A stretch of DNA of 47,232 nucleotides from an uncultured Acidobacteriota bacterium (GTDB taxonomy: Bacteria; Acidobacteriota; UBA6911): assembly GCA_963809485.1 (NCBI GenBank), contig CAWEJX010000013.1, positions 1-47,232 of the forward strand, written 5' to 3'. Positions 32,655 through 47,232 of the stretch are shown here, in pieces. Below the pieces are notes generated by a model, which did not search any database, had not been told where the DNA came from, and saw only the letters and a program-made list of their open reading frames with translations. Each line of letters starts with the position of its first letter. Positions within the stretch are counted from its first letter, which is position 1. Position numbers and translations under genes: made by a program.

Positions 32655-33048
32655 GTCAGGTACCTCCGGCAAAGCCGGAGGCCTGAAAGATTTGAACCGC
32701 TCAAACCGGTTGGACTAGTTACGCCGGTCTTGAACGATGACTTACGCGGGCAAAAGCCGATGAGGCGCTTCCGATCCCCGCAGGGGCCAGCTCTCCGCGC
32801 TGGACAGTTTTCTGCGGCGGCACTGTGGCAAGCGCCGTGCGGCAAGGAGATGAAGGATATGAGAAACCGGGCGTTTGCCACAGTGCCGCCGCAGAAAACT
32901 CCATCGGAAGCGCCTCATCGGCTTTTGCTCGCCGACCCTCGCCGAACAAATCGGCGTATGTCAGCGCTTTTATCAGCGTTTCTCAGCGTTTCAAAATACG
33001 GAGCCGTCAAACTCATTGAGTGCCCCGGCAGAGCCGGGGATTTACCAA
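32655..33048 (+). mobile_element. Longest copy of the composite non-autonomous repeat element (hairpin end, nested inverted repeat, TCAGCG module, hairpin end)
   Basis: Left part matches 1708-1845. Inverted repeats 32746-32775/32903-32932 and 32806-32836/32870-32900. TCRGCG at 32951, 32961, 32973 and 32983. Ends CCCCGGCAGAGCCGGGGATTTACC. Confidence 0.65.
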
Positions 33049-33077
33049 TGTAATTATGGAAGGAAGGGGAAGGGCAG

Positions 33078-36852: not shown

Positions 36853-37209
36853 GAATTGCCCTCCTGGAAATTGGCCACCAATTATTTATAGCGGTGTTCA
36901 GTCGCAAATGAACAGGATTTTTTAGTGATCCATCGTACGGCTCTGTTTCGCAAACAGAATCATTGACCGACCCCGCCGGCCCGGGCATTCAAGCAATCCA
37001 TGCAAGTAGCTGCTATTAATGGATTTCCCCGGAATATCTTTTCTGCCCGTTTTATTTCATAGTATGATGCCGTGTCAGGTTTTCATTGCTGAAATTTTTA
37101 AGCTAATTGGATAGGCTCCGGAGCAGCCGGTCAAGCCAGTGTATATGGGCTGCTATCGTAAATTATATCGGCGCAGCAAAACTGTTTCTCTTTTCGAGGA
37201 GATGAGCCA

Positions 37210-39016
37210 ATGAATGAGCCAATGCATCGATTCAAATACACAAAACTCACCAAAGAACAGGTAGGCCAAAAAGCTTGAGCCGACGGCCGCCGGCCCGAAA
37301 TGCGCATCGGAGTTGTCGGACGTTCTTGCCGGAAAGTCATTGAAAATCGTGACCGATAACGGCCCCGTTTTGAACTACGTCTTTAAAGACAAGCGCAAGC
37401 TTACGCTGGCTGAGGGCAACGGAGCTCCCGTTGAATCGGGATACGGCGCACTGACGCTTAAGCAGTTGGTTTTCTTCTCCCACATGATCCCCGGAACCCA
37501 GAGAGGCTTCAATGTTTTCGTCGATCAGGATACGAATCTTGCCACGGTCTTTGAAGTGTGGCTCTGCAGCGGCAAAAAAGAAGTAACGATGTCCAAAAAG
37601 GAATTCACGATCGACGACAGGGAGGTCCAGCGCCAGATCTATTTCGGCTATGTGGACGTTCCGGGCAAAGAGGTGCCGAAAAAGCGGCATCACACGACCA
37701 ACAGGCTCGAAGGCACGGGCATGTACTGGAAACAGGACACGGGAATCGAGACCCTGGACTTGTATCCTTCGGTCTCCTCCTCGAACTTTGTCGAACTCAC
37801 CCGGCATGCCGACGACCTCAGCTACTGCGCCCCTTCGGACTACGTAATGGTCAACGACAACCTGTTTATCTATGAAAGAACGGAATGCGAATTCTCCGGC
37901 ATTATGACTATGTACGCCCTCGACCTGTTCACGGAAACCCAGGCGGGCATGCGCCTCGGCTTCAATGAAAAGGACGAGTTGGAATACTACATGTTCCGGG
38001 GAACGGGCAAAGTTGTCGGCAACCTGACCTCACTGGCGCCCTTCGACGAGCACGGCGAAAAGATGAATCTCGGCCAGACCAACGCACCTCAGCCGAACCA
38101 GCCGGCGCCCACGCCTCCCAAAGGCCAGAGAATCGTGTACCGCCCGGCAAGAGATTTCAGGAACATGACTGAAGAAGAGGTCCATCAGGCTGCCGAAAAA
38201 AGCACCAGGACTTTCACCGGCGATGCCAACACCCCGCAGGAACAGGGGGGGATGGGAGGCAACGCGCTGCCGTTCAGCGACCTGCTGGTCGGCAAGGAGT
38301 TCACTCTCCGCTATGACAATGAAGGCCCGGTCTGGGATTACAAGGTCCTCGACATGTACAATCTTCAGTGGCGGAAACACGGCGATACTCAATGGCAGAA
38401 AGAGACCTACCGTGCCTTTGAGGCCGATGAAAAACTGGTATTTTTCGCCCACATTCACAGCGGAAGCAGGCCCCGCACCTGCAGGAGAATCGCCCTGGAC
38501 CTGACCAACGGCCTTACCACCTGCGTTCTCTCCAGGATGGGCACGAAGTATTACGGGAATGAGGTTTCCTATCGAGCCCTCTTCGGCGCAGCCGAAATGG
38601 CAGGAGTGGAGGCTCCGCAGTACGTACGTCATGAATTCACCGACGAACTGGTCGGCCGCGGATTCACACGGTCCTATTCCGACCAGATGACTTCCATGCA
38701 TCTCTACACCACGCCCCATTCCTCGTCCTGGACAATTTACACGGCAAACCAGACTCTGGGCATGCAGTGGTGCGCCCCGGCCATGTATGTAAAACTCCGT
38801 CCCGGAGTGTATATCTTTGATCTGGTTGAGGAAGGCTGCAACGGCGCGGAGACCTGTATCATCGAAAATGAAAAAACGAAGCGTGCTTGCGGGTTCGGCT
38901 TCTCCGGCAGCGAGAGGGGAGTAGGTCTCAATACCATCGGAGCGATCGCGCGCGACATCGGAAGGTACGACATCCGACAATTCTTCGGACCGAAGGCGAG
39001 AGTGAAAGGAGCATAA
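37210..39016 (+). CDS. MoaF-like domain repeat protein (one frameshift near 37270)
   Basis: Internal duplication (DVLAGKSL / DLLVGKEF; HHTTNRLEG / HEFTDELVG) resembling MoaF N/C beta-barrels. ATG 37210 follows GAGGAG and joins ORF 37313 if one A is removed from an A5 run. Confidence 0.55.
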
Positions 39017-39017
39017 C

Positions 39018-39819
39018 ATGGCCATCTCAAAATCGAAAATGGAGTCCAACAGAAGTCCGAAGCAGCCGAACGGCGGGCGTCGATCCTTTATTCTGGAAAA
39101 CAGGCGCCGCCATGTCGGCCGTGCTCGCATCCGCGGTGGCGGGTGTCTCAAAATCCAGTCCGGATCATGATGCAGGCTTGAAGGGCGAGATGGAAACGCT
39201 TTCCAATCGAATCGGATGCCTCGAAGACGCCAACATCATCCGCAGGCTGAACCAGCACGTATGAAACCTGTCTCGACCAGGGGATGTACGAAGAGGTCGT
39301 CGACATGTTTCGCGGACGAAGCGGAGGTGGTCTTCAACGGCGGAGTCTTTATCGGCAAAGACAAGGGCGTTCGCCGCCTGTATTGCAACCACTTCAGCCG
39401 GAATCGGACCGGAAAGAAGATCGAGCCGGCGCCCGGCTTTGAACCGGATCTGGCCCAGCTTCAAGATGTCGTGGAAGTTGCGCAGGACCGCCAGTCCGCT
39501 AAGGCGCAATTCCCCTATTCCATGCAGGTAGGGACGCCGCTGGTCTCCGAATTGCCGCTGCTTGAAATGATGCGCCAGCAGGGCCAGGGAATACGGCAAT
39601 GGTGGGAAGGCGGAATTCATGACGTGTCCTATGTGAAAGAACGTAATGCCTGGAAAATACAAGAGGCTTGAATACCGGCTGCTGTCCAGGGCTGACTATA
39701 AACCCGGGCGGTTCTATGCAAAGCCCATTTCCGTCCCGCATTTCTCTGAAGTTTATCCCGGGAATCCGAGCGGGCCGGACAAGCTCATCACGGCAAAACC
39801 CAAAGCTCGCGAGGCATAA
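39018..39819 (+). CDS. SnoaL-like/NTF2-family protein with RR leader, multiply frameshifted
   Basis: Pieced together across frames: GGRRSF..., LEDANIIRRL, DQGMYEEVVDMF, DVVEVAQDRQSAKA, WWEGG...YVKE..AWKI, KRLEY...YPGNP. Confidence 0.6.
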
Positions 39820-39843
39820 GCCTTTAAACTGAGCGCTGCGACA

Positions 39844-39884
39844 CAAGGGGGCGGGGAGGCATTGCAGGTCTCTCCGCCCCCCTT
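39844..39884 (+). terminator. Strong GC-rich hairpin downstream of the SnoaL-like gene
   Basis: CAAGGGGGCGGGGAGGC...GTCTCTCCGCCCCCTTG inverted repeat. No U-tract, so terminator function is uncertain. Confidence 0.35.
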
Positions 39885-40140
39885 GCCCTGCAATGCACTC
39901 TGTCCGGCTGAAGCCAAAAAGGCAGTCCGGCTCCCCCATGCAATTGGGGAAACTCGTTTCCATGGAAATTTCCCAAGCCGGATATCGCCGGCAGAATCCC
40001 GGTTCCCTGCTCCAATGAATTCAGTCATTCGATCCATGAACCCCGGCCATCGCGAATCCGCTTCCGGTGAGAGTCAGGGCATATCCAGCGCTGCATGGAA
40101 ATATGGAAATCTGTCGTATATGATTTTGTATATAGGAGGA

Positions 40141-41016
40141 ATGCCAGTGAAAAATAAATACACGCGACGTGAAGCTCTGGAACTGGGGCTGGGGGCAGTT
40201 GCCCTGGGAGCATCGAGTGCGGCGATTTCATCCGCACAAACAACCCAAAAACCTGTTCCCGGAGAGGGGAATCCTGTACCTGCATTGAGCGAGTTCAATA
40301 AGTACGGGGAGGAACTGGAAACATCCTTGCTTCTGAGGACTTCCCCTGTGGCCGTAAAAATGCTGGAGAGGGAAGCGGACATCCCGAAAGGAGCTTTCCG
40401 TCCGAAAAGGGACGGAGGCTATCATATCGCCCAGTGCCAGGCCTTTGGCATGTCGCGGCGGGAAGGTAAAACCGTTGCCATGTTGAAGGAAGATCATTGG
40501 TGTCCGACGGCTCTCATCTCTTATGGAATGGTGCGGAAGCCGGATTCTATGGCGATGTATGGAGAATCTTTTGACAGCTTTGAAGTCGGGAAATATATCG
40601 GTGTGGTTACGGCGCCTCTAAAGAGCGCAACGTTTATTCCGGACGTCGTTCTTATATATTCGAATCCCGCGCAACTCAGGGGATTGCTTATGCCGATGAT
40701 GTATGGCGGTGGCGGGGCTCAGGTCAGCACCTATTTATTCCTTCCATCCTGTGCGCACAGCGTTGTGGCTCCCATGAAAACGGGAAAATACAGCGTCGTG
40801 CTTCCAGACCCCGGGGAATACCAGAGAGCTCTGACTCCGGAGGAAGAAATGATGTTCGCGGCGCCGCGGGACAAGATGCCGGCATTTATGGCAGGCTTAA
40901 AAAGGGGCGGGAAATTGTATTCCCATCGGGATCAATACATGTCCATGCACCCGGATTTTGAACAGCCGCAATTTTATAAAGATATGTTTAAGGGCTGGGG
41001 ACTGGATTCAAAATAG
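40141..41016 (+). CDS. DUF169 family protein with twin-arginine-like leader
   Basis: LRTSPVAVK, CQAFGMSRR, DHWCP, PDVVLIYSNPAQ, EEEMMF. ATG 40141 follows AGGAGG; YTRREALELGLG leader. Confidence 0.75.
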   Translation: MPVKNKYTRREALELGLGAVALGASSAAISSAQTTQKPVPGEGNPVPALSEFNKYGEELETSLLLRTSPVAVKMLEREADIPKGAFRPKRDGGYHIAQCQAFGMSRREGKTVAMLKEDHWCPTALISYGMVRKPDSMAMYGESFDSFEVGKYIGVVTAPLKSATFIPDVVLIYSNPAQLRGLLMPMMYGGGGAQVSTYLFLPSCAHSVVAPMKTGKYSVVLPDPGEYQRALTPEEEMMFAAPRDKMPAFMAGLKRGGKLYSHRDQYMSMHPDFEQPQFYKDMFKGWGLDSK

Positions 41017-41414
41017 AAATTGCCCGACAACAGATTACGGTTCCCCACTGCAATCGATAGCGCATGCCGTGTCGACAGCCTCCGGCTTTGCTCTGATTGA
41101 AGCGCGCACTTGAAACTGAGAGCAAGCTCGACGGGGTTCCGGCTGAGACGCAGGGAAGATTTGCCTTTTACCATTCTTTGAGCCGTTGAACCGTCGAGGC
41201 CTTGTATGCTGCTCAAGGATCAGGTTGTTCAAGGGTAGTTCAGAACTCTGTATGAAACGCCGGCGGTGAAACCGGTCCGTGGGGTGAAGACCGGCGAAAT
41301 CGCCCATAGGCTTGAAATCAGGAAGCCCGCATATAGTCCATGCTTCTCCCATGATTCCAGCATGGACGAGAAGATCAAGAGGCCGTCGGCCAAAGGTTGT
41401 CAAAGGAGCTGAAT

Positions 41415-42113
41415 ATGAACGAGAGCGCGGATGCACGTTTCGCCCGGATCAAGTCGCACTTCGAGCAGGAGGCGCGGGTCTTCGACAAGATGTTCTTCAA
41501 GGTGATGCCCTATTACGACGAGATGATGCAGGCCGTGGTCGAGGCAATGCCGTTCGGCCGCAACGACCGCCTGAAGATTGCCGACCTGGGGTGCGGGACT
41601 GGAAACTTGAGTCTCAAGGTACTCGAGGCTTTTCCTCGGGCGCAGTTGGTCTGCGTGGACATGGCCGAAAAGATGCTCCTTGCCAGCCGCGCCAAGCTCG
41701 CCGGCTATCCGTCGGTGCAATTCCGGCAGGCCGACATCCGCACCTTCGACTACGGAACCTACGACGCTATCGTCTCGTCCATGGTCATGCATCACATCGC
41801 TCTGCGGCAAAAGCTCGCCTTTTACCGCCGGCTGCGGCGGGCGCTTTCCCGCAAAGGCGTGCTCTTCATTATCGATATCGTGCTTTCGGCCAATCCGCAT
41901 CTGCAGGAGCTGTTCATGCAGCGCTGGAAAGATCACATGGGGGCAAGCGGCATGTCTGCCAAATGGGTCGAGGAGATGATACGGCGTCACCGAAGCGAAG
42001 ACCGGCCCCGGGATTTTGAGGCCGAGTTTGATGGCCTGCGCAAGGCCGGATTCAAGGACGTGGATGTCGTCCTGAAACGGTACAATTTCGCGGTCTACGG
42101 GGGCAGGGTGTAA
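41415..42113 (+). CDS. Class I SAM-dependent methyltransferase
   Basis: IADLGCGTG motif I, VDMAEKML, YDAIVSSMVMHH. Confidence 0.9.
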   Translation: MNESADARFARIKSHFEQEARVFDKMFFKVMPYYDEMMQAVVEAMPFGRNDRLKIADLGCGTGNLSLKVLEAFPRAQLVCVDMAEKMLLASRAKLAGYPSVQFRQADIRTFDYGTYDAIVSSMVMHHIALRQKLAFYRRLRRALSRKGVLFIIDIVLSANPHLQELFMQRWKDHMGASGMSAKWVEEMIRRHRSEDRPRDFEAEFDGLRKAGFKDVDVVLKRYNFAVYGGRV

Positions 42114-42194
42114 GCCTCGATCCGATATCCGGGCCAATGAGGGCAGCCCGTAATCCGCCAACATATGCCTGCAAAAACCGGCTTTCACATTGTG

Positions 42195-42265
42195 GTCAGC
42201 CTTTGTCAGCGTTGAATAATCCCGGAACGGTCGAGCTCTGGTTATCCCGCAGCGAGACTGGAGAA
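42195..42265 (+). repeat. Degenerate TCAGCG repeat family copy
   Basis: TCAGCC at 42196, TCAGCG at 42206, tail ATCCCGGAACGGTCGAGCTCT similar to the 9470 copy. Confidence 0.5.
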
Positions 42266-42502
42266 TTGGCTTTAAATCCATTCAATCCTTACCTCAAAAT
42301 TCCGGTATTGCTTGAGGGCTCCTGGTGTAACATCGAGCTTGCGAACAACTGCTGAAGACAGCCGGTTTTCAGATATTTCTATGTTGCCTGCAGGCAATAC
42401 AGAAGAAAGACGAAGCTCGAACTGCTGCAACTCGATATTGGATATACGGATAACTGCTGTCAGGCCCCCGGGACAGGGAGAAATGGGATAAAATCCACAG
42501 CC

Positions 42503-42898
42503 ATGCAAACCAAAGATCATGTACTGGAATTCCGCGTTTACTTGGAAGATACGGATGCGCAAGGCATCGTTTATTACGCCAACTATCTTCGCTATTTTGA
42601 ACGCGGCCGATGCGAGTTCCTCGAATCGTTGGGCGTCCCGATAACGGAAGTTGCGAGACCGGATCGCCGGCTGGTGGTATACGAGATCCGCGTCAAATTC
42701 CGGCGCCCCGCCTCCCTGGGGGACAGAATCGAGGTGCTGACCTCAATGCTGCGCTCATCGGAATACCGTCTCACTTTTCGACAGCAAATAAGGCGCCGAG
42801 GAGAGGCGGAGGCACTGGTGAGCGGCGAAGTGGATGTCGTCGCGATCGACCGGGACGGCACATTGAAGGAATTGCCTGAATTCCTAAGTCAGGCGTAA
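42503..42898 (+). CDS. YbgC/FadM-family acyl-CoA thioesterase
   Basis: RVYLEDTDAQGIVYYANYLRYFERGR hot-dog fold signature. Confidence 0.9.
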   Translation: MQTKDHVLEFRVYLEDTDAQGIVYYANYLRYFERGRCEFLESLGVPITEVARPDRRLVVYEIRVKFRRPASLGDRIEVLTSMLRSSEYRLTFRQQIRRRGEAEALVSGEVDVVAIDRDGTLKELPEFLSQA

Positions 42899-43060
42899 AG
42901 GTTGACGCAAAGGCGCGGCCCGGGTGAAAAGAGGGAGAGACGATAGTATTTGCCTTTCACTGGTACCGCGGGCAATGATAGGATTCATTGATAAAAGTTT
43001 ACGCCGCAAAATTTCACAAGCTGGAGAGGCTGGCTTCCGGGGTTCGAAAACCGGAATAGG

Positions 43061-43810
43061 GTGCCCATGATAACTCCTGCAAAAAACGATTGGAGCATCC
43101 TGGCAAAACTAGAGCTCGACAACCCGCCCGTAGGCGTAAAATATTCGTCCAAGCCTCTGCGGGGGATTCCTAAGCTGGATAAAAAGATGTCTCTCTGTGA
43201 GATGCTCAGAGCCGCTTTCGAAGGAAACTCATTCTACGCCGCTGCGAAGTATCATGCTTGTGAGGCTGGATTGCACGTATTAGGACAAAATGAGATTGCG
43301 GAACAATATCTCAGTGGCGCCTTTGGTGCAGGATTGGAGGTTTTCCGTGACAAGCGCACTGCCCGCAAACTGTATGAATACATCCCCAGGATACCGGAAG
43401 GAGCGGTGAAATATGTCGCCCTGGCTCCTCTCAGCCGAATGGCGTTTGATCCCGACCTCCTGATTATATTGGCCGATACAAGGCAAGCCGAGATATTGCT
43501 CCGGGCTGTGAGTTACGGAACCGGGGAGATGTGGCACAGCCGCTATTCGAGTGCCATCGGTTGCGCCTGGCTTTTCGCTTATCCGCACCTGAATGGAGAG
43601 ATAAACTTTATCGCCACCGGTCTAGGTTTCGGAATGAGGCGCAGGAAATTGTTTCCGGAGGGACTGCAACTCATTTCGATTCCTTGTGATCGGCTGTCCT
43701 ATATGCTGCAAACCCTGCGGGAAATGCCCTGGGTTCCTCGCCCATACCAGGCGGGAGGACCGGAGTATGTGAAGCGCCTGCGCATAAAACTTGGCTTGGA
43801 CAAGGCGTGA
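43061..43810 (+). CDS. DUF169 family protein
   Basis: PPVGVK, LCEML, HACEAG, FDPDLLII, SAIGC. Confidence 0.75.
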   Translation: MPMITPAKNDWSILAKLELDNPPVGVKYSSKPLRGIPKLDKKMSLCEMLRAAFEGNSFYAAAKYHACEAGLHVLGQNEIAEQYLSGAFGAGLEVFRDKRTARKLYEYIPRIPEGAVKYVALAPLSRMAFDPDLLIILADTRQAEILLRAVSYGTGEMWHSRYSSAIGCAWLFAYPHLNGEINFIATGLGFGMRRRKLFPEGLQLISIPCDRLSYMLQTLREMPWVPRPYQAGGPEYVKRLRIKLGLDKA

Positions 43811-43876
43811 TAGGAGGGCATTAGGCCTTTCATCCTTCCGGCCGTCCCGGCAGTGCTTAAATGGGAGAAACTTCCA

Positions 43877-44389
43877 ATGCTGATGCAATTGGATAAAACC
43901 CTTCTGCCAATGATAGAGGCATTCAACCAGAACCCTGATATTTGCCGATTCGTTTCATTGCTCTCGCCCACTTGACCCAAATGAATTGACCAGGGTGCCC
44001 GGGCGGTACAGAATGGAATCCTGAAACTCTTTCCCGACGCAACTCTGGACGTGCTGCTGATATGGATTCCCATGATGAGCAATGATAGCCATAAGGCTGC
44101 GCAAAAGGCAGTCGAAAAATTTAAGGACAAAAGAGTAAAGCACTTTTACGATCCACAACATCTGGCCGGCCGGGCGTTTGCTATCAGCCTCGGCCAAAGC
44201 GATAAGGTAGCTTGGGATATATATATGTTCTACCCGTGCGGGGCGCTATGGCGGGACCTGCCTCCATCGCCGAAGGCGTACATGCACCAGCTTCGCGATA
44301 GCTGGGCTGATCCGGGCTTTCTGTTCGAAAAAGAGCAGCTAACAGCAAAACTGAGCGAAACAATGAAATTGCTGTTCCCTAGCCTATAA
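43877..44389 (+). CDS. Thioredoxin-fold protein, predicted di-selenoprotein (UxxU)
   Basis: ATG 43877 (GGGAG RBS) gives ...FVSLLSPT-TGA(43973)-PK-TGA(43982)-IDQGARAVQ, in frame with ORF 44051-44389. Hairpin at 43995-44009. Confidence 0.75.
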
Positions 44390-44391
44390 GG

Positions 44392-44925
44392 GTGAATGTG
44401 GCATACAAAGAATCCATAGGGCCGATATTCCTGATGGCAGCGCTGGCCATGTTCCTGGCTGTCGCCTGTAGCCGCCGTCCTGACGTCAGTCCTGATGCTG
44501 AAAAAACAGAAACGATTCCCCAAAACCTGCCAAAGGAGAAGGAACCACAGCCCGTTTCCTTGCCCGCCAAGCGAACAGAAACCGTAGGACACAAAGTTAA
44601 ATCCGCACAAAATTCAGCGACCGATGCTTCAGCTGATAAAACACCGACGGACCCTGCGAATAACAAAATTGACTGGGGTCGCGAAGCTGCGCTCGACGAG
44701 ATCCTCGCAATGGCAAAGAGCGGCGCGATTCAACAGATTGAGTGGCATGTGATGCCGAACATCATCCGCGCCCAAACTATCGACGGCCGGATTTTCCACA
44801 TAAAGAATGAGAACAAAGGGATCGATATACGCAACACGCTTATAAAATCCGGCATTCAGGTTGGAAAGGGCGGGATCAGCTTTCGAACATTGATCTCTGA
44901 ACCTGAGACTGGCCCCGAGGGATAG
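44392..44925 (+). CDS. Hypothetical lipoprotein
   Basis: LAVAC lipobox, low-complexity linker, small C-terminal domain. Starts 2 nt after the UxxU gene. Confidence 0.65.
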   Translation: MNVAYKESIGPIFLMAALAMFLAVACSRRPDVSPDAEKTETIPQNLPKEKEPQPVSLPAKRTETVGHKVKSAQNSATDASADKTPTDPANNKIDWGREAALDEILAMAKSGAIQQIEWHVMPNIIRAQTIDGRIFHIKNENKGIDIRNTLIKSGIQVGKGGISFRTLISEPETGPEG

Positions 44926-44983
44926 TCCTGGTCCAGGACGGAAGAGCTGGAAAGCCGACGGATAAGGCGATTGGACAAATGCC

Positions 44984-45546
44984 ATGGTGACATTCTGGGT
45001 GGATGCACTATCGATATTGTTTGCTCTCGTTGCTGTAGGCTTTGCCGTCAGGAAATGGCACATCGTAAGGGATCGTCATTGGATCCTGTCAACGATAAGG
45101 GCTGCCTTGAAGGAACCAAAAGCTTGCTGCATCGGAACCCTGGCAGGCGTTTTTTATATGGCCGTATACCTGATTCCCGGCGGGAAAGGCGGCCGAATTC
45201 ATGTGTTGTTCGGGCAGCTGATATTCAACACTTCGGCGGGCAACTGTTGACCGGCCTTTCACTGGCCCTCCTGGTGACGATTTCGATGGCCTTGTTTGTT
45301 TACGGCGTGCACGTTATGGGCTTCCCAAAATCGGGGAAAAAGGGCGGGATGGGGCTTATCGGCACTTTCCTGGCGGTGTTGGCCGCTTTTTGCCCCTGAT
45401 GACTGCCAATTTTAACGGCTCTGGGCGGAGCCGCGAGCGCTTTGTTTCTGACCTATTTTTGGAATGCATTGGCTGCACTCTCCGTAGCCTTGTTGATTCT
45501 GGGCATTTTGTACACATCCAAAGCTCTAAAGGCCAGTGAAGGCTGA
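44984..45546 (+). CDS. Membrane protein, predicted di-selenoprotein (CPUU), with one frameshift near 45240
   Basis: ORF 44984-45250 joins the frame ending LAAFCP. TGA TGA (45397-45402) is followed by LPILTALGGAASALFLTYFWNALAALSVALLILGILYTSKALKASEG* (hydrophobic helices). Hairpin at 45416-45433. Confidence 0.65.
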
Positions 45547-45644
45547 CGCTGACCTACCAATTCGCCCTAGTTTGGGGCGCATCGTCAAAAGAAACGGCAG
45601 CCTGTATGAAGGCTTCAACGAATTTCAAACAAGGGGAATTCAAT

Positions 45645-47232
45645 ATGAGAAGATCGGTCATGGGGCTTATAGCAGTTTTGATAATTTTGCCGATACTATT
45701 TTGGGCTGGCAAAATGGAGGCAGCTGCAGCTTCTCAATACACGTTAACCGTTTTAAATCCTCAAGGCCCGGTCAAAAAAGGCCGGGAACTGGCTCCCCGC
45801 CTGACAACATTGAACGGCAAGAAGGTCGCCATGTGGCTGTCCGCCACTCGCGATCAGGTATACGCCGGCAAAGGCGCGGAGCTATATGATCTCCTGGAGA
45901 AGATGCTCAAGGAAAAATTTGCGGACATCCAAATCGTGCCCTACAAGGACCTGCCTATGAAGTTTGGGCCGGAAAAGGAGGTGATGGCCGCAATCGAGAA
46001 AACCAAAGCCGATGCTGTTATAGCAGCCCTGGGCGGCTGATGAGGGGGTGACATTCTCGGCGCGATGGGTTCCATCGCTATTGCTCTCGAAGAAAAAGGC
46101 ATTCCCACCGTGACTCTATATAACGAGCGTCATGAGAAACGCTTTATGGGAACGATCCTTCCCAAAGGATATATCGATTATCCGGCAATGAATTTTGAGG
46201 AATACGACACGTTTACTTCGGAAGGCATTAAGGCGCTGGCGCCTGAGGCATTCAGTTTTGTGGTAAAAGGGCTTACCACATGGAAACCTCAGCATATGAA
46301 GCTGGCGGCAGACAAATGGATTCCCCAAAGAAAACGAGTTTTCCTACACCGCCGCGAGTTATCAAGAAGGCCAGGCCCGGTTCAACATCGATTTCCTCAA
46401 AATGGGCTGGGGTGATGGATTGCCGCTGCTGCCTCCGACGCGCAGCCGGGTCGATGCCCTGTTGAAAGGCACGCCGCTGTCTGCGTCAGAACCGTAATCG
46501 GCGCATGGGGGCCTGCCAATGCTGATTTCACAGTGGAAAAAATAGCCATTGTCGCGACCATGGCCGGCGCCGAACCGGAATACATGCCCGTAATTCTTGC
46601 GGCGTTAAAGGCCATCACCTCCGCCCGATGGGATGCCTATTTCCCCGTAATGCGAGCACCGGTTCCACTGGTGCTTGTCAACGGCCCCTATGCCCGGAAG
46701 ATAGGAATCAATTCGTCTGCAAATGCTTTTTGCCGAACCCCAAGTATCACGCCAACGGCGTGATCGGGCGGGCAATCAATTTGGCCATGGCCAGCATTCC
46801 GGGCAATGGCCGAGGCATAAAGCCTTCTAACCTGGCCGGCAATCCTGCCGCATATGCCGGAATTGTCATTGCGGAAGCGGAGGATATCGCCTCGCTGGGG
46901 TGGTTGGATCCGGTCAGCGTCCAATTGGGTTATCCCGCAGGGACCAATCTGGTTACCGTTCTCGGCATTGAAGAGATGGATATGAGCGTGGCGGGAACGA
47001 TCGCCAACCTCGTGTCTTGTATCAGCCCGCACAAGGAAATATCGGCCCAGGGACCGGAAAACCTGGGATGCCCAATATGCCGGCGCGCTCGTGATAACGG
47101 AGATGCAGCGCGTGACCGACGGCTTGATGGGAAGCAAGACCAAAGCCGATATTGCCCATGAGCTCTGGGAATCCGCTCGCATTCCGATGGATAAATTCAA
47201 TAAGCTCATCCTGACAAGTGAATTTGGGGAAC
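45645..47232 (+). CDS. Secreted UGSC-(seleno)protein-like domain fused to a GWGDGLP domain; predicted tandem Sec (GGUU); several frameshifts; runs off window
   Basis: Signal peptide, LAPRLTTLNGK, DAVIAALGG-TGA-TGA(46038-46043)-GGDILGAMGSIAIALEEKGIPTV in frame. Then, across shifts, GWGDGLPLLPPT, TVEKIAI..MAGAEPEY.PVILAA, VNGP, NGVIGRA. Confidence 0.65.

Follow-up and report, generated by a model that had tools for sequence, protein, structure and literature searches.

A candidate Cys-Pro-Sec-Sec membrane protein family with tandem UGA codons in a putative selenoprotein gene cassette of Acidobacteriota

In bacteria, insertion of selenocysteine (Sec, U) at a UGA codon is thought to need a Sec insertion sequence (SECIS) hairpin whose distance from that codon varies little. 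The table of a review of May 2026 (PMC13188914) holds 119 prokaryotic selenoprotein families, a few with two or three Sec residues (UxxU, UxxxxU, CxU and others) and none tabled with UU; a MerT-type protein, an E1-E2 ATPase and SO_0444 appear there with one Sec each, and UGSC with the motif U-G-S-C. The algal protein PDI_e (GUGUU) is stated in its account to be the first selenoprotein with consecutive Sec residues (PMC7539508), and our full-text literature searches returned no report of bacterial Sec-Sec. Here, we analyze a 47,232-nt contig (CAWEJX010000013.1, assembly GCA_963809485.1) of an uncultured Acidobacteriota bacterium of the UBA6911 lineage, the whole of which we call the window, and a gene near its end, hereafter the CPUU gene, in which two adjacent TGA codons stand in frame within a membrane protein. 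Comparison with relatives leads us to read TGA-TGA as Sec-Sec and the gene as a member of a small, unnamed family of ~187-aa probable inner-membrane proteins with five predicted transmembrane (TM) helices, the fourth of which would carry an invariant Cys-Pro-Sec-Sec-x-Pro; we put the probability of this reading at about 80%. It draws on the conservation of both UGAs, coding selection downstream of them, a conserved hairpin, a genome equipped with Sec machinery, Cys at the corresponding alignment columns in distant homologs and a conserved gene cassette.

The tandem TGA codons and the hairpin downstream

In the window, TGC CCC TGA TGA CTG CCA occupies positions 45391 to 45408 of the plus strand, with both TGAs (45397-45402) in frame with an upstream ...LAVLAAFCP. 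There follow 47 hydrophobic sense codons (45403-45543), a TGA stop at 45544-45546 and, within them, a CGGCUCU-GGGC-GGAGCCG hairpin at 45416-45433 that starts 13 nt 3' of the second TGA; these elements of a preliminary description, made from the letters of the window, were confirmed. With TGA written as U, the read-through frame is LTGLSLALLVTISMALFVYGVHVMGFPKSGKKGGMGLIGTFLAVLAAFCP-U-U-LPILTALGGAASALFLTYFWNALAALSVALLILGILYTSKALKASEG, then TGA. In the numbering of the 187-codon family, the site is Cys137-Pro138-UGA139-UGA140-Leu141-Pro142, a proposed C-P-Sec-Sec-x-P in the middle of TM4, and the proposed SECIS hairpin (7 bp, loop GGGC) doubles as codons T145 to A151. Taken alone, the window offers no more than chance (34 occurrences of TGATGA against 27.7 expected, and a probability of ∼10%, by simple arithmetic, for 47 stop-free codons), so any significance comes from comparison with relatives. 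A genome-wide screen for in-frame TGATGA open on both sides returned 162 matches versus 12 to 83 for other double-stop hexamers, but it was dominated by off-frame GAT-GA/ATG-A and is no real census; by eye, its matches were protein-like only at the two sites in the window.

The read-through C-terminal part was searched against 60 related genomes. Of the 29 other genomes from the organism's genus, 8 contain an ortholog (58 to 84% identity), always with the two TGAs inside the match (AAFCP-TGA-TGA-[L/M]P), and none of the 60 genomes outside the genus had one; among 401 genomes sampled evenly across the phylum, only the organism's own genome and one other (G001) matched. Scans of GTDB contigs and metagenome contigs added a Thermodesulfobacteriota single-cell genome (L032) and nine metagenome loci reaching the site, and the record titles of relatives read ‘Acidobacteria bacterium’ metagenome-assembled genomes. 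In these relatives the gene is one unbroken 187-codon frame, MVT...KWH[IV][IV]RDR...GG[KQ]GGR[IV]H...FCP-TGA-TGA-[LM]P...G. All 16 distinct full-length coding sequences (CDS) are 561 nt long, without an indel, and have TGA at codons 139 and 140 (16/16). Both TGAs are likewise preserved in the window and in the cut relatives L043 and L018/L035 (one contig under two locus identifiers; L012-L016 are similarly repeated as L030-L034), the motif being FCP-TGA-TGA-[L/M/I]P throughout. The gene's own stop is TGA in every copy, for which reason a reassigned TGA code was rejected. In nearly all copies seen, that stop is followed one codon on by a second in-frame TGA (TGA-NNN-TGA, with R, G, S, V, E, H or L between; 45544-45552 in the window), a conserved back-up TGA.

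Nei-Gojobori estimates over the 120 pairs of these 16 CDS gave proportions of synonymous (pS) and nonsynonymous (pN) differences of 0.548 and 0.211 for codons 1 to 138 (median ratio of nonsynonymous to synonymous rates, dN/dS, 0.24) and of 0.555 and 0.210 for codons 141 to 187 (median dN/dS 0.25). The first and second alternative frames of the downstream part gave pS 0.34 with pN 0.29 and pS 0.16 with pN 0.35, respectively. The equality of dN/dS on the two sides of the pair indicates that the 47 codons are under the same protein-level purifying selection, in the read-through frame, as the rest of the gene.

The hairpin was examined in an alignment of TGATGA plus 54 nt (18 rows, 16 distinct). 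The RNAalifold consensus is exactly the hairpin of the preliminary description, pairing columns 20-26 with 31-37; 112 of 112 cells are standard pairs, against 37 to 57% when the partners are slid by one to three columns, and pair 21:36 covaries (G:C in seven, A:U in six and G:U in three of the distinct rows). The loop is GGGC or GGGU, and the hairpin lies 13 nt after the second UGA and 16 nt after the first. Within it, the fourfold-degenerate positions are frozen (GCT 16/16, GGA 16/16), with pS of 0.36 over codons 141 to 151 versus 0.63 over codons 152 to 187, synonymous sites elsewhere being near saturation. These frozen sites argue for constraint on the RNA.

The 6.0-Mb assembly encodes one tRNA-Sec, a SelB (391 bits, over the cut-off) and a SelD (L055, G000:C8:80982-81905; 345 bits) that has one in-frame TGA, in SSSAAG-U-ASK, and is thus itself a selenoprotein. 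The SelD hairpin (7 bp, loop GGC) lies 13 nt after its UGA, which is the spacing of the CPUU gene counted from the second UGA, and in the next gene downstream, a UGSC-domain fusion with its own tandem pair, each of 14 distinct relatives places a 7-bp hairpin 12 nt 3' of the second UGA. In both tandem pairs, then, the second UGA lies at the organism's ordinary distance and the first one codon further off, from which we infer that the SECIS tolerates a one-codon shift for the first UGA. Comparison with relatives thus supports the earlier suggestion of adjacent Sec-Sec with one downstream hairpin. Both UGAs would be recoded to Sec by SelB and Sec-tRNA(Sec) under the guidance of one 7-bp hairpin and, given the single hairpin 13 nt after the second UGA, we propose that SelB loads twice on the same hairpin, at successive codons. 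Decoding of two successive UGAs from one hairpin has no bacterial description in the catalog of PMC13188914 or in the literature searched.

Cysteine homologs, topology and the proposed selenoprotein cassette

A profile of eight members searched against 1.84 billion representative proteins gave 30 matches at E ≤ 1e-3, most of them truncated 138-aa forms or C-terminal fragments of 33 to 47 aa; six full-length proteins span the site. Two of these have A-C-C-G-P (P0084, 389 aa, E 3.7e-16; P0085, 314 aa, E 7.4e-16), one has G-C-C-G-S (P0095, 392 aa, E 1.8e-6) and three have C-P-x-C-x-(x)-P (P0098, 321 aa, E 4e-5; P0101, 166 aa, E 3.3e-4; P0103, 164 aa, E 5e-4). In the alignment, the column of U140 is Cys in all six proteins, that of U139 is Cys in the three CC types, and C137-P138 coincides with the C-P of the other three, so that C-P-U-U unites both patterns. 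The vicinal Cys position proposed at the outset is thereby borne out by distant full-length homologs with C-C-G-P or C-P-x-C-x-P exactly there.

The Cys homologs share the same membrane domain over query positions 9 to 186, with Cys at the U columns; they differ from the UU family in their 21 to 31% identity, exported N-terminal domains, Cys-rich cytoplasmic C-terminal tails (EECxxC and the like) and lack of Sec. In P0085, which NCBI names ‘cation transporter’, a signal peptide at the N terminus is accompanied by an HMA domain (Pfam 4.9e-10, with MerP/CopZ-type NCBIfam matches as well). No Pfam or NCBIfam family covers the membrane domain of the Cys homologs, an ESM Atlas search with residues 120 to 314 of P0085 returned only unnamed clusters (0.84-0.85) and a PDB sequence search with the family profile gave 0 matches at E ≤ 10. 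Hydropathy over 16 members marks out five hydrophobic stretches, and C-P-U-U lies halfway along the fourth; the loop of residues 22 to 46 is strongly basic (7.3 Lys and Arg on average) and presumably cytoplasmic.

The CPUU gene is the third of a four-gene cassette (UxxU protein, lipoprotein, CPUU protein, UUGC protein) that is present wherever a locus has sufficient flank, that of the Thermodesulfobacteriota single-cell genome included, and has six UGA codons across three of its four genes. The first gene (43853-44389, plus strand, like the others) encodes a ~178-aa protein with in-frame TGAs at 43973-43975 and 43982-43984; its motif, LLSPT-U-[P/S]K-U (LLSPT-U-PK-U in the window), is kept in all relatives with flank. 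This UxxU protein has no signal peptide and no Pfam or NCBIfam match, and databases would split it at the first TGA. The second gene (44392-44925) encodes a predicted 177-aa lipoprotein with a ...LAVAC lipobox, recognized by eye, and no family match.

The fourth gene, the exported UGSC-domain fusion (45645-47232), has an in-frame TGATGA at 46038-46043 and runs off the end of the contig. In relatives (L011-L017, L032, L038-L046) it encodes ~570 aa, is of lipoprotein type in several and has GFGG-U-U-G-C in all. Its UGSC domain (Pfam PF24696, cut-off 25) scores 53.3 bits in the ortholog of the closest relative, G006, and 43.1 bits in the window, whereas the NCBIfam model (NF041046) gives 34.4 bits against a cut-off of 125, the motif being U-U-G-C instead of that family's U-G-S-C. 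Its C-terminal domain (~330 aa, GWGDGLP..PPT...) has no Pfam, NCBIfam or PDB match beyond chance PDB matches. Further upstream lie genes for two DUF169 proteins, a thioesterase, a SAM methyltransferase and a MoaF-like protein. The two DUF169 (COG2043) paralogs (39862-41016 and 43061-43810) flank the methyltransferase and thioesterase genes just upstream of the cassette.

The copy of the CPUU gene in the window

The window's own CPUU gene lacks 1 nt near 45242 relative to all relatives (GGGC-G-AAC), a deletion at 45237-45242 (GGGCAAC in the window, GGGCGAAC in G006) that splits it into two frames. The N-terminal part (44984-45250, codons 1-86, predicted TM1 and TM2 with the conserved loops KWH[IV][IV]RDR and GG[KQ]GGR[IV]H) is brought by the frameshift to a premature TGA at 45248-45250, and the C-terminal part (45247-45543, codons 89-187) holds the predicted TM3, TM4 with C-P-U-U-L-P, and TM5. 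Since the premature stop shares bases with a TTG at 45247 (TTGA), a separate C-terminal product may be made. A second Cys pair, KACC (45119-45130), that the preliminary description placed in the N-terminal part of the protein does not survive this comparison: it lies in the open reading frame 44984-45250, in another frame than TGA-TGA, and relatives have K-A-[F/L]-W or similar there. Programmed frameshifting at 45242 was rejected because relatives need none.

The neighboring UUGC gene is broken as well, with frame changes near 46323, 46486, 46733 and 47043 and a 6-nt insertion (46049-46054) that turns the Cys of UUGC into G-D-I and widens the gap between the second UGA and the hairpin from 12 to 18 nt. 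Because of the 1-nt deletion and this broken neighbor, the window's CPUU copy is probably inactive or else the contig end is mis-assembled. Real decay, in which the last two cassette genes would be pseudogenes and a dead remnant, seems to us slightly better than an even bet against the alternative of assembly errors at the contig end with the gene intact in the cell. The number of lesions (one deletion in the CPUU gene, at least four frame changes and the insertion in the next) speaks for decay, as does the fact that seven genes upstream in the same ~10-kb syntenic block (36895-47229, 88% identical to G006) are intact and that the indels lie mostly outside homopolymers. Neither lesion recurs on contigs from other samples: at 45237-45242 one extra base is present in three of three covering runs (X2, X4, X5), and the six inserted letters (46046-46054) are missing from the X1, X4 and X5 contigs, the X1 and X4 records being 51 and 81 letters long. 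Against decay, pN/pS relative to G006 is 0.28 and 0.58 for the two genes and 0.11 to 0.35 for their neighbors, values from small counts that are not clearly raised; the lesions lie within the last 2 kb of a contig in an assembly of 21 contigs with 7% contamination; and no public run contains the strain itself (best share of words 0.24). The biology discussed here rests on the intact relatives. A repeat of ~115 to 150 nt (92-95% identical) occurs in the window at 1710-1825 and 32657-33057 and once in G006 (L049, G006:C61); as it follows directly on the G006 cassette, approximately where the window contig ends, it may have broken the assembly.

Function, alternative readings and comparison with known systems

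Several observations weigh against the reading of a CPUU selenoprotein family with a MerT-like site. Support for Sec insertion is entirely comparative, the window's own copy is frameshifted, and the lack of any Cys form among close members (16 distinct CDS and 73 protein-database relatives) is unusual for selenoproteins. Covariation in the hairpin amounts to one pair, the other six being invariant and lying in the conserved codons T-A-L-G-G-A-A, so part of its conservation may come from protein constraint; RNAfold on a 60-nt stretch of the window prefers another minimum-free-energy fold (z = +0.53), and an Rfam scan of 43800-46300 (E ≤ 10) found no SECIS family, only a chance PAGEV match. The AlphaFold2 model (25-row alignment) is poor, with a mean predicted local distance difference test score (pLDDT) of 55.2 and a predicted TM-score (pTM) of 0.45, so the topology rests on hydropathy, with which its helices agree. 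The C-terminal Cys cluster of the Cys homologs is missing from the UU family, and all three cassette partners have redox-type motifs, which would suit a relay of electrons no less than one of metal. As for the Mer proteins, the window's 99-aa C-terminal part reaches 24.0 bits with Pfam MerE (PF05052, cut-off 22.8), the sole Pfam family over its cut-off, but full-length proteins fall below that cut-off (15.5 bits for L012) and two of eight members match at E ≤ 1; no member matches Pfam MerT (PF02411) at E ≤ 1, and hhalign against MerT places UU on the MerT CC with a probability of only 10.5% (E 0.003, 52 columns). These scores do not show membership in MerT, MerF or MerE, and for MerT they speak against it.

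By analogy, the site may nevertheless work like the CC-Pro helix of MerT, MerF and MerE. Halfway across the membrane, one thiol and two selenols would coordinate a soft metal or metalloid ion and hand it on to the other side, as do the vicinal Cys-Cys-(x)-x-Pro of MerT/MerF and the CPC of P1B ATPases; a weak match to the CPC-bearing end of E1-E2_ATPase is present in five of eight members. The likely partners, judging from the cassette, would be the exported lipoprotein and the exported UUGC protein on the outside and the UxxU protein on the inside. More tentatively still, the whole cassette could be an all-selenium transmembrane relay (UxxU, C-P-U-U and U-U-G-C, six Sec residues) for a soft metal or metalloid or for electrons, working by selenol/diselenide exchange, in which one SECIS set for the second codon serves two successive UGAs.

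The same Sec-Sec protein could instead carry reducing equivalents, as a selenium counterpart of the CcdA/DsbD relay, from the UxxU protein through the membrane C-P-U-U (as a vicinal diselenide or selenylsulfide) to the exported UUGC protein and lipoprotein; we regard this as possible but rather doubtful. The conserved cassette does pair a UxxU partner without a signal peptide with exported UUGC partners, the family is without the cytoplasmic Cys tail of its Cys homologs, and a vicinal Cys-Sec redox pair is present in mammalian thioredoxin reductase. Section 7 of PMC13188914, which describes uncharacterized UxxC-type selenoproteins as mostly thought to be redox proteins and the function of UGSC as largely uncharacterized, lends the idea further weight. 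Yet there is no Pfam or NCBIfam match to DsbD, CcdA or thioredoxin, and the sole informative fusion among the homologs is to an HMA metal-binding domain. The two Cys of CcdA and DsbD, moreover, stand on different helices. The HMA-fused Cys homolog places the metal relay somewhat ahead of the redox relay. Of the earlier proposal of a metal transporter or transmembrane reductant with Sec-Sec, the Sec-Sec part has thus gained support.

It is very improbable, in our view, that TGA-TGA is a plain double stop after a 138-aa protein ending in ...AAFCP, with the 47 codons untranslated or re-initiated as a small reading frame. Gene callers do end the protein there, at 134 to 141 aa in 67 of the 73 relatives found in a word-indexed protein database (of eight proteins fetched, four were longer forms of 159 to 176 aa, N-terminally extended, chimeric or cut), so that public annotation truncates the whole family, but at the DNA level the frame runs on in every case. 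No enrichment of TGATGA was seen in the window, and an ATG follows the pair in 6 of the 16 CDS, as a restart would have it; the codon is CTG in eight, CTT in two and, in L043, ATT, and this variability leaves no conserved restart codon. Selection downstream equals that upstream and other frames differ, a hydrophobic helix runs straight across the site, distant homologs are continuous there with Cys at these columns, and a tandem stop would not need TGA-TGA exactly in 16 of 16 copies when synonymous sites are near saturation.

We consider it just as improbable that the UGAs are passed without Sec, through near-cognate insertion of Trp, Cys or Arg or through a ribosomal hop from Pro138 (CCC/CCT) to Pro142 (CCN), nine bases on, even though Pro codons stand on either side of the TGATGACTG stretch in all copies: the genome has tRNA-Sec, SelB and SelD, the hairpin geometry is that of the SelD hairpin, the homologs have exactly two residues here, one of them the invariant Cys that a hop would delete, and the fact that both codons are always TGA, with no TGG, TGC or TGT, speaks for selection on codon identity.

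If the Sec-Sec reading is correct, a membrane helix with Cys-Pro-Sec-Sec would offer an extreme site for soft-metal binding or low-potential redox chemistry, and would extend to this family the idea of vicinal Cys metal sites of the MerT type upgraded to selenium. Two adjacent UGAs with one hairpin, in two neighboring genes, would form a natural test of the spacing tolerance and reload speed of SelB. At present the family is cut short at 138 aa in every database copy, its partner genes are split, and selenoproteome surveys that seek Sec/Cys pairs among close homologs miss the family.

Among described selenoproteins, algal PDI_e is alike in having two adjacent UGAs read as Sec-Sec, but it is eukaryotic, with a SECIS in the 3'-untranslated region, other decoding machinery and a soluble thioredoxin fold, whereas the CPUU gene has a bacterial-type hairpin inside the coding sequence, just 3' of the UGAs. 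The tabled Sec-containing transporters resemble the CPUU family as bacterial membrane transporters, predicted by comparative genomics, in which Sec takes the place of a metal-ligand Cys; they differ in having a single Sec, and the CPUU family matches none of their models.

The Mer proteins remain the closest comparison in form. NCBIfam MerE (NF010310) gives 17 to 26 bits (25.6 and 17.5) against a cut-off of 80, and Pfam MerE found nothing at E ≤ 1 in the organism's own genomic DNA, where the stops presumably interrupt the alignment. No MerA, MerP or MerR is encoded among the neighbors that would make a mer operon. Over 137 genomes of the class, the MerT model found ordinary MerT genes and not the UU genes, and one such ordinary match (G449:C553:15202-15423, L064) has one in-frame TGA and may be a Sec-type MerT. 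MerT, MerF and MerE and the UU family are alike as small inner-membrane proteins with a Cys pair (or its proposed Sec counterpart) near a Pro in a TM helix, followed by a small-residue L-G-x-G; eleven MerT genes of the class align as GASLCC-IV-P...LGVGS, so that SLCC-IV-P...LGVG of MerT stands beside FCPUU-L-P...LGGA of the UU family. The UU family differs in its 187 aa and five predicted helices, against family models of 116 and 75 positions, and in a Pro spacing that is off by one residue.

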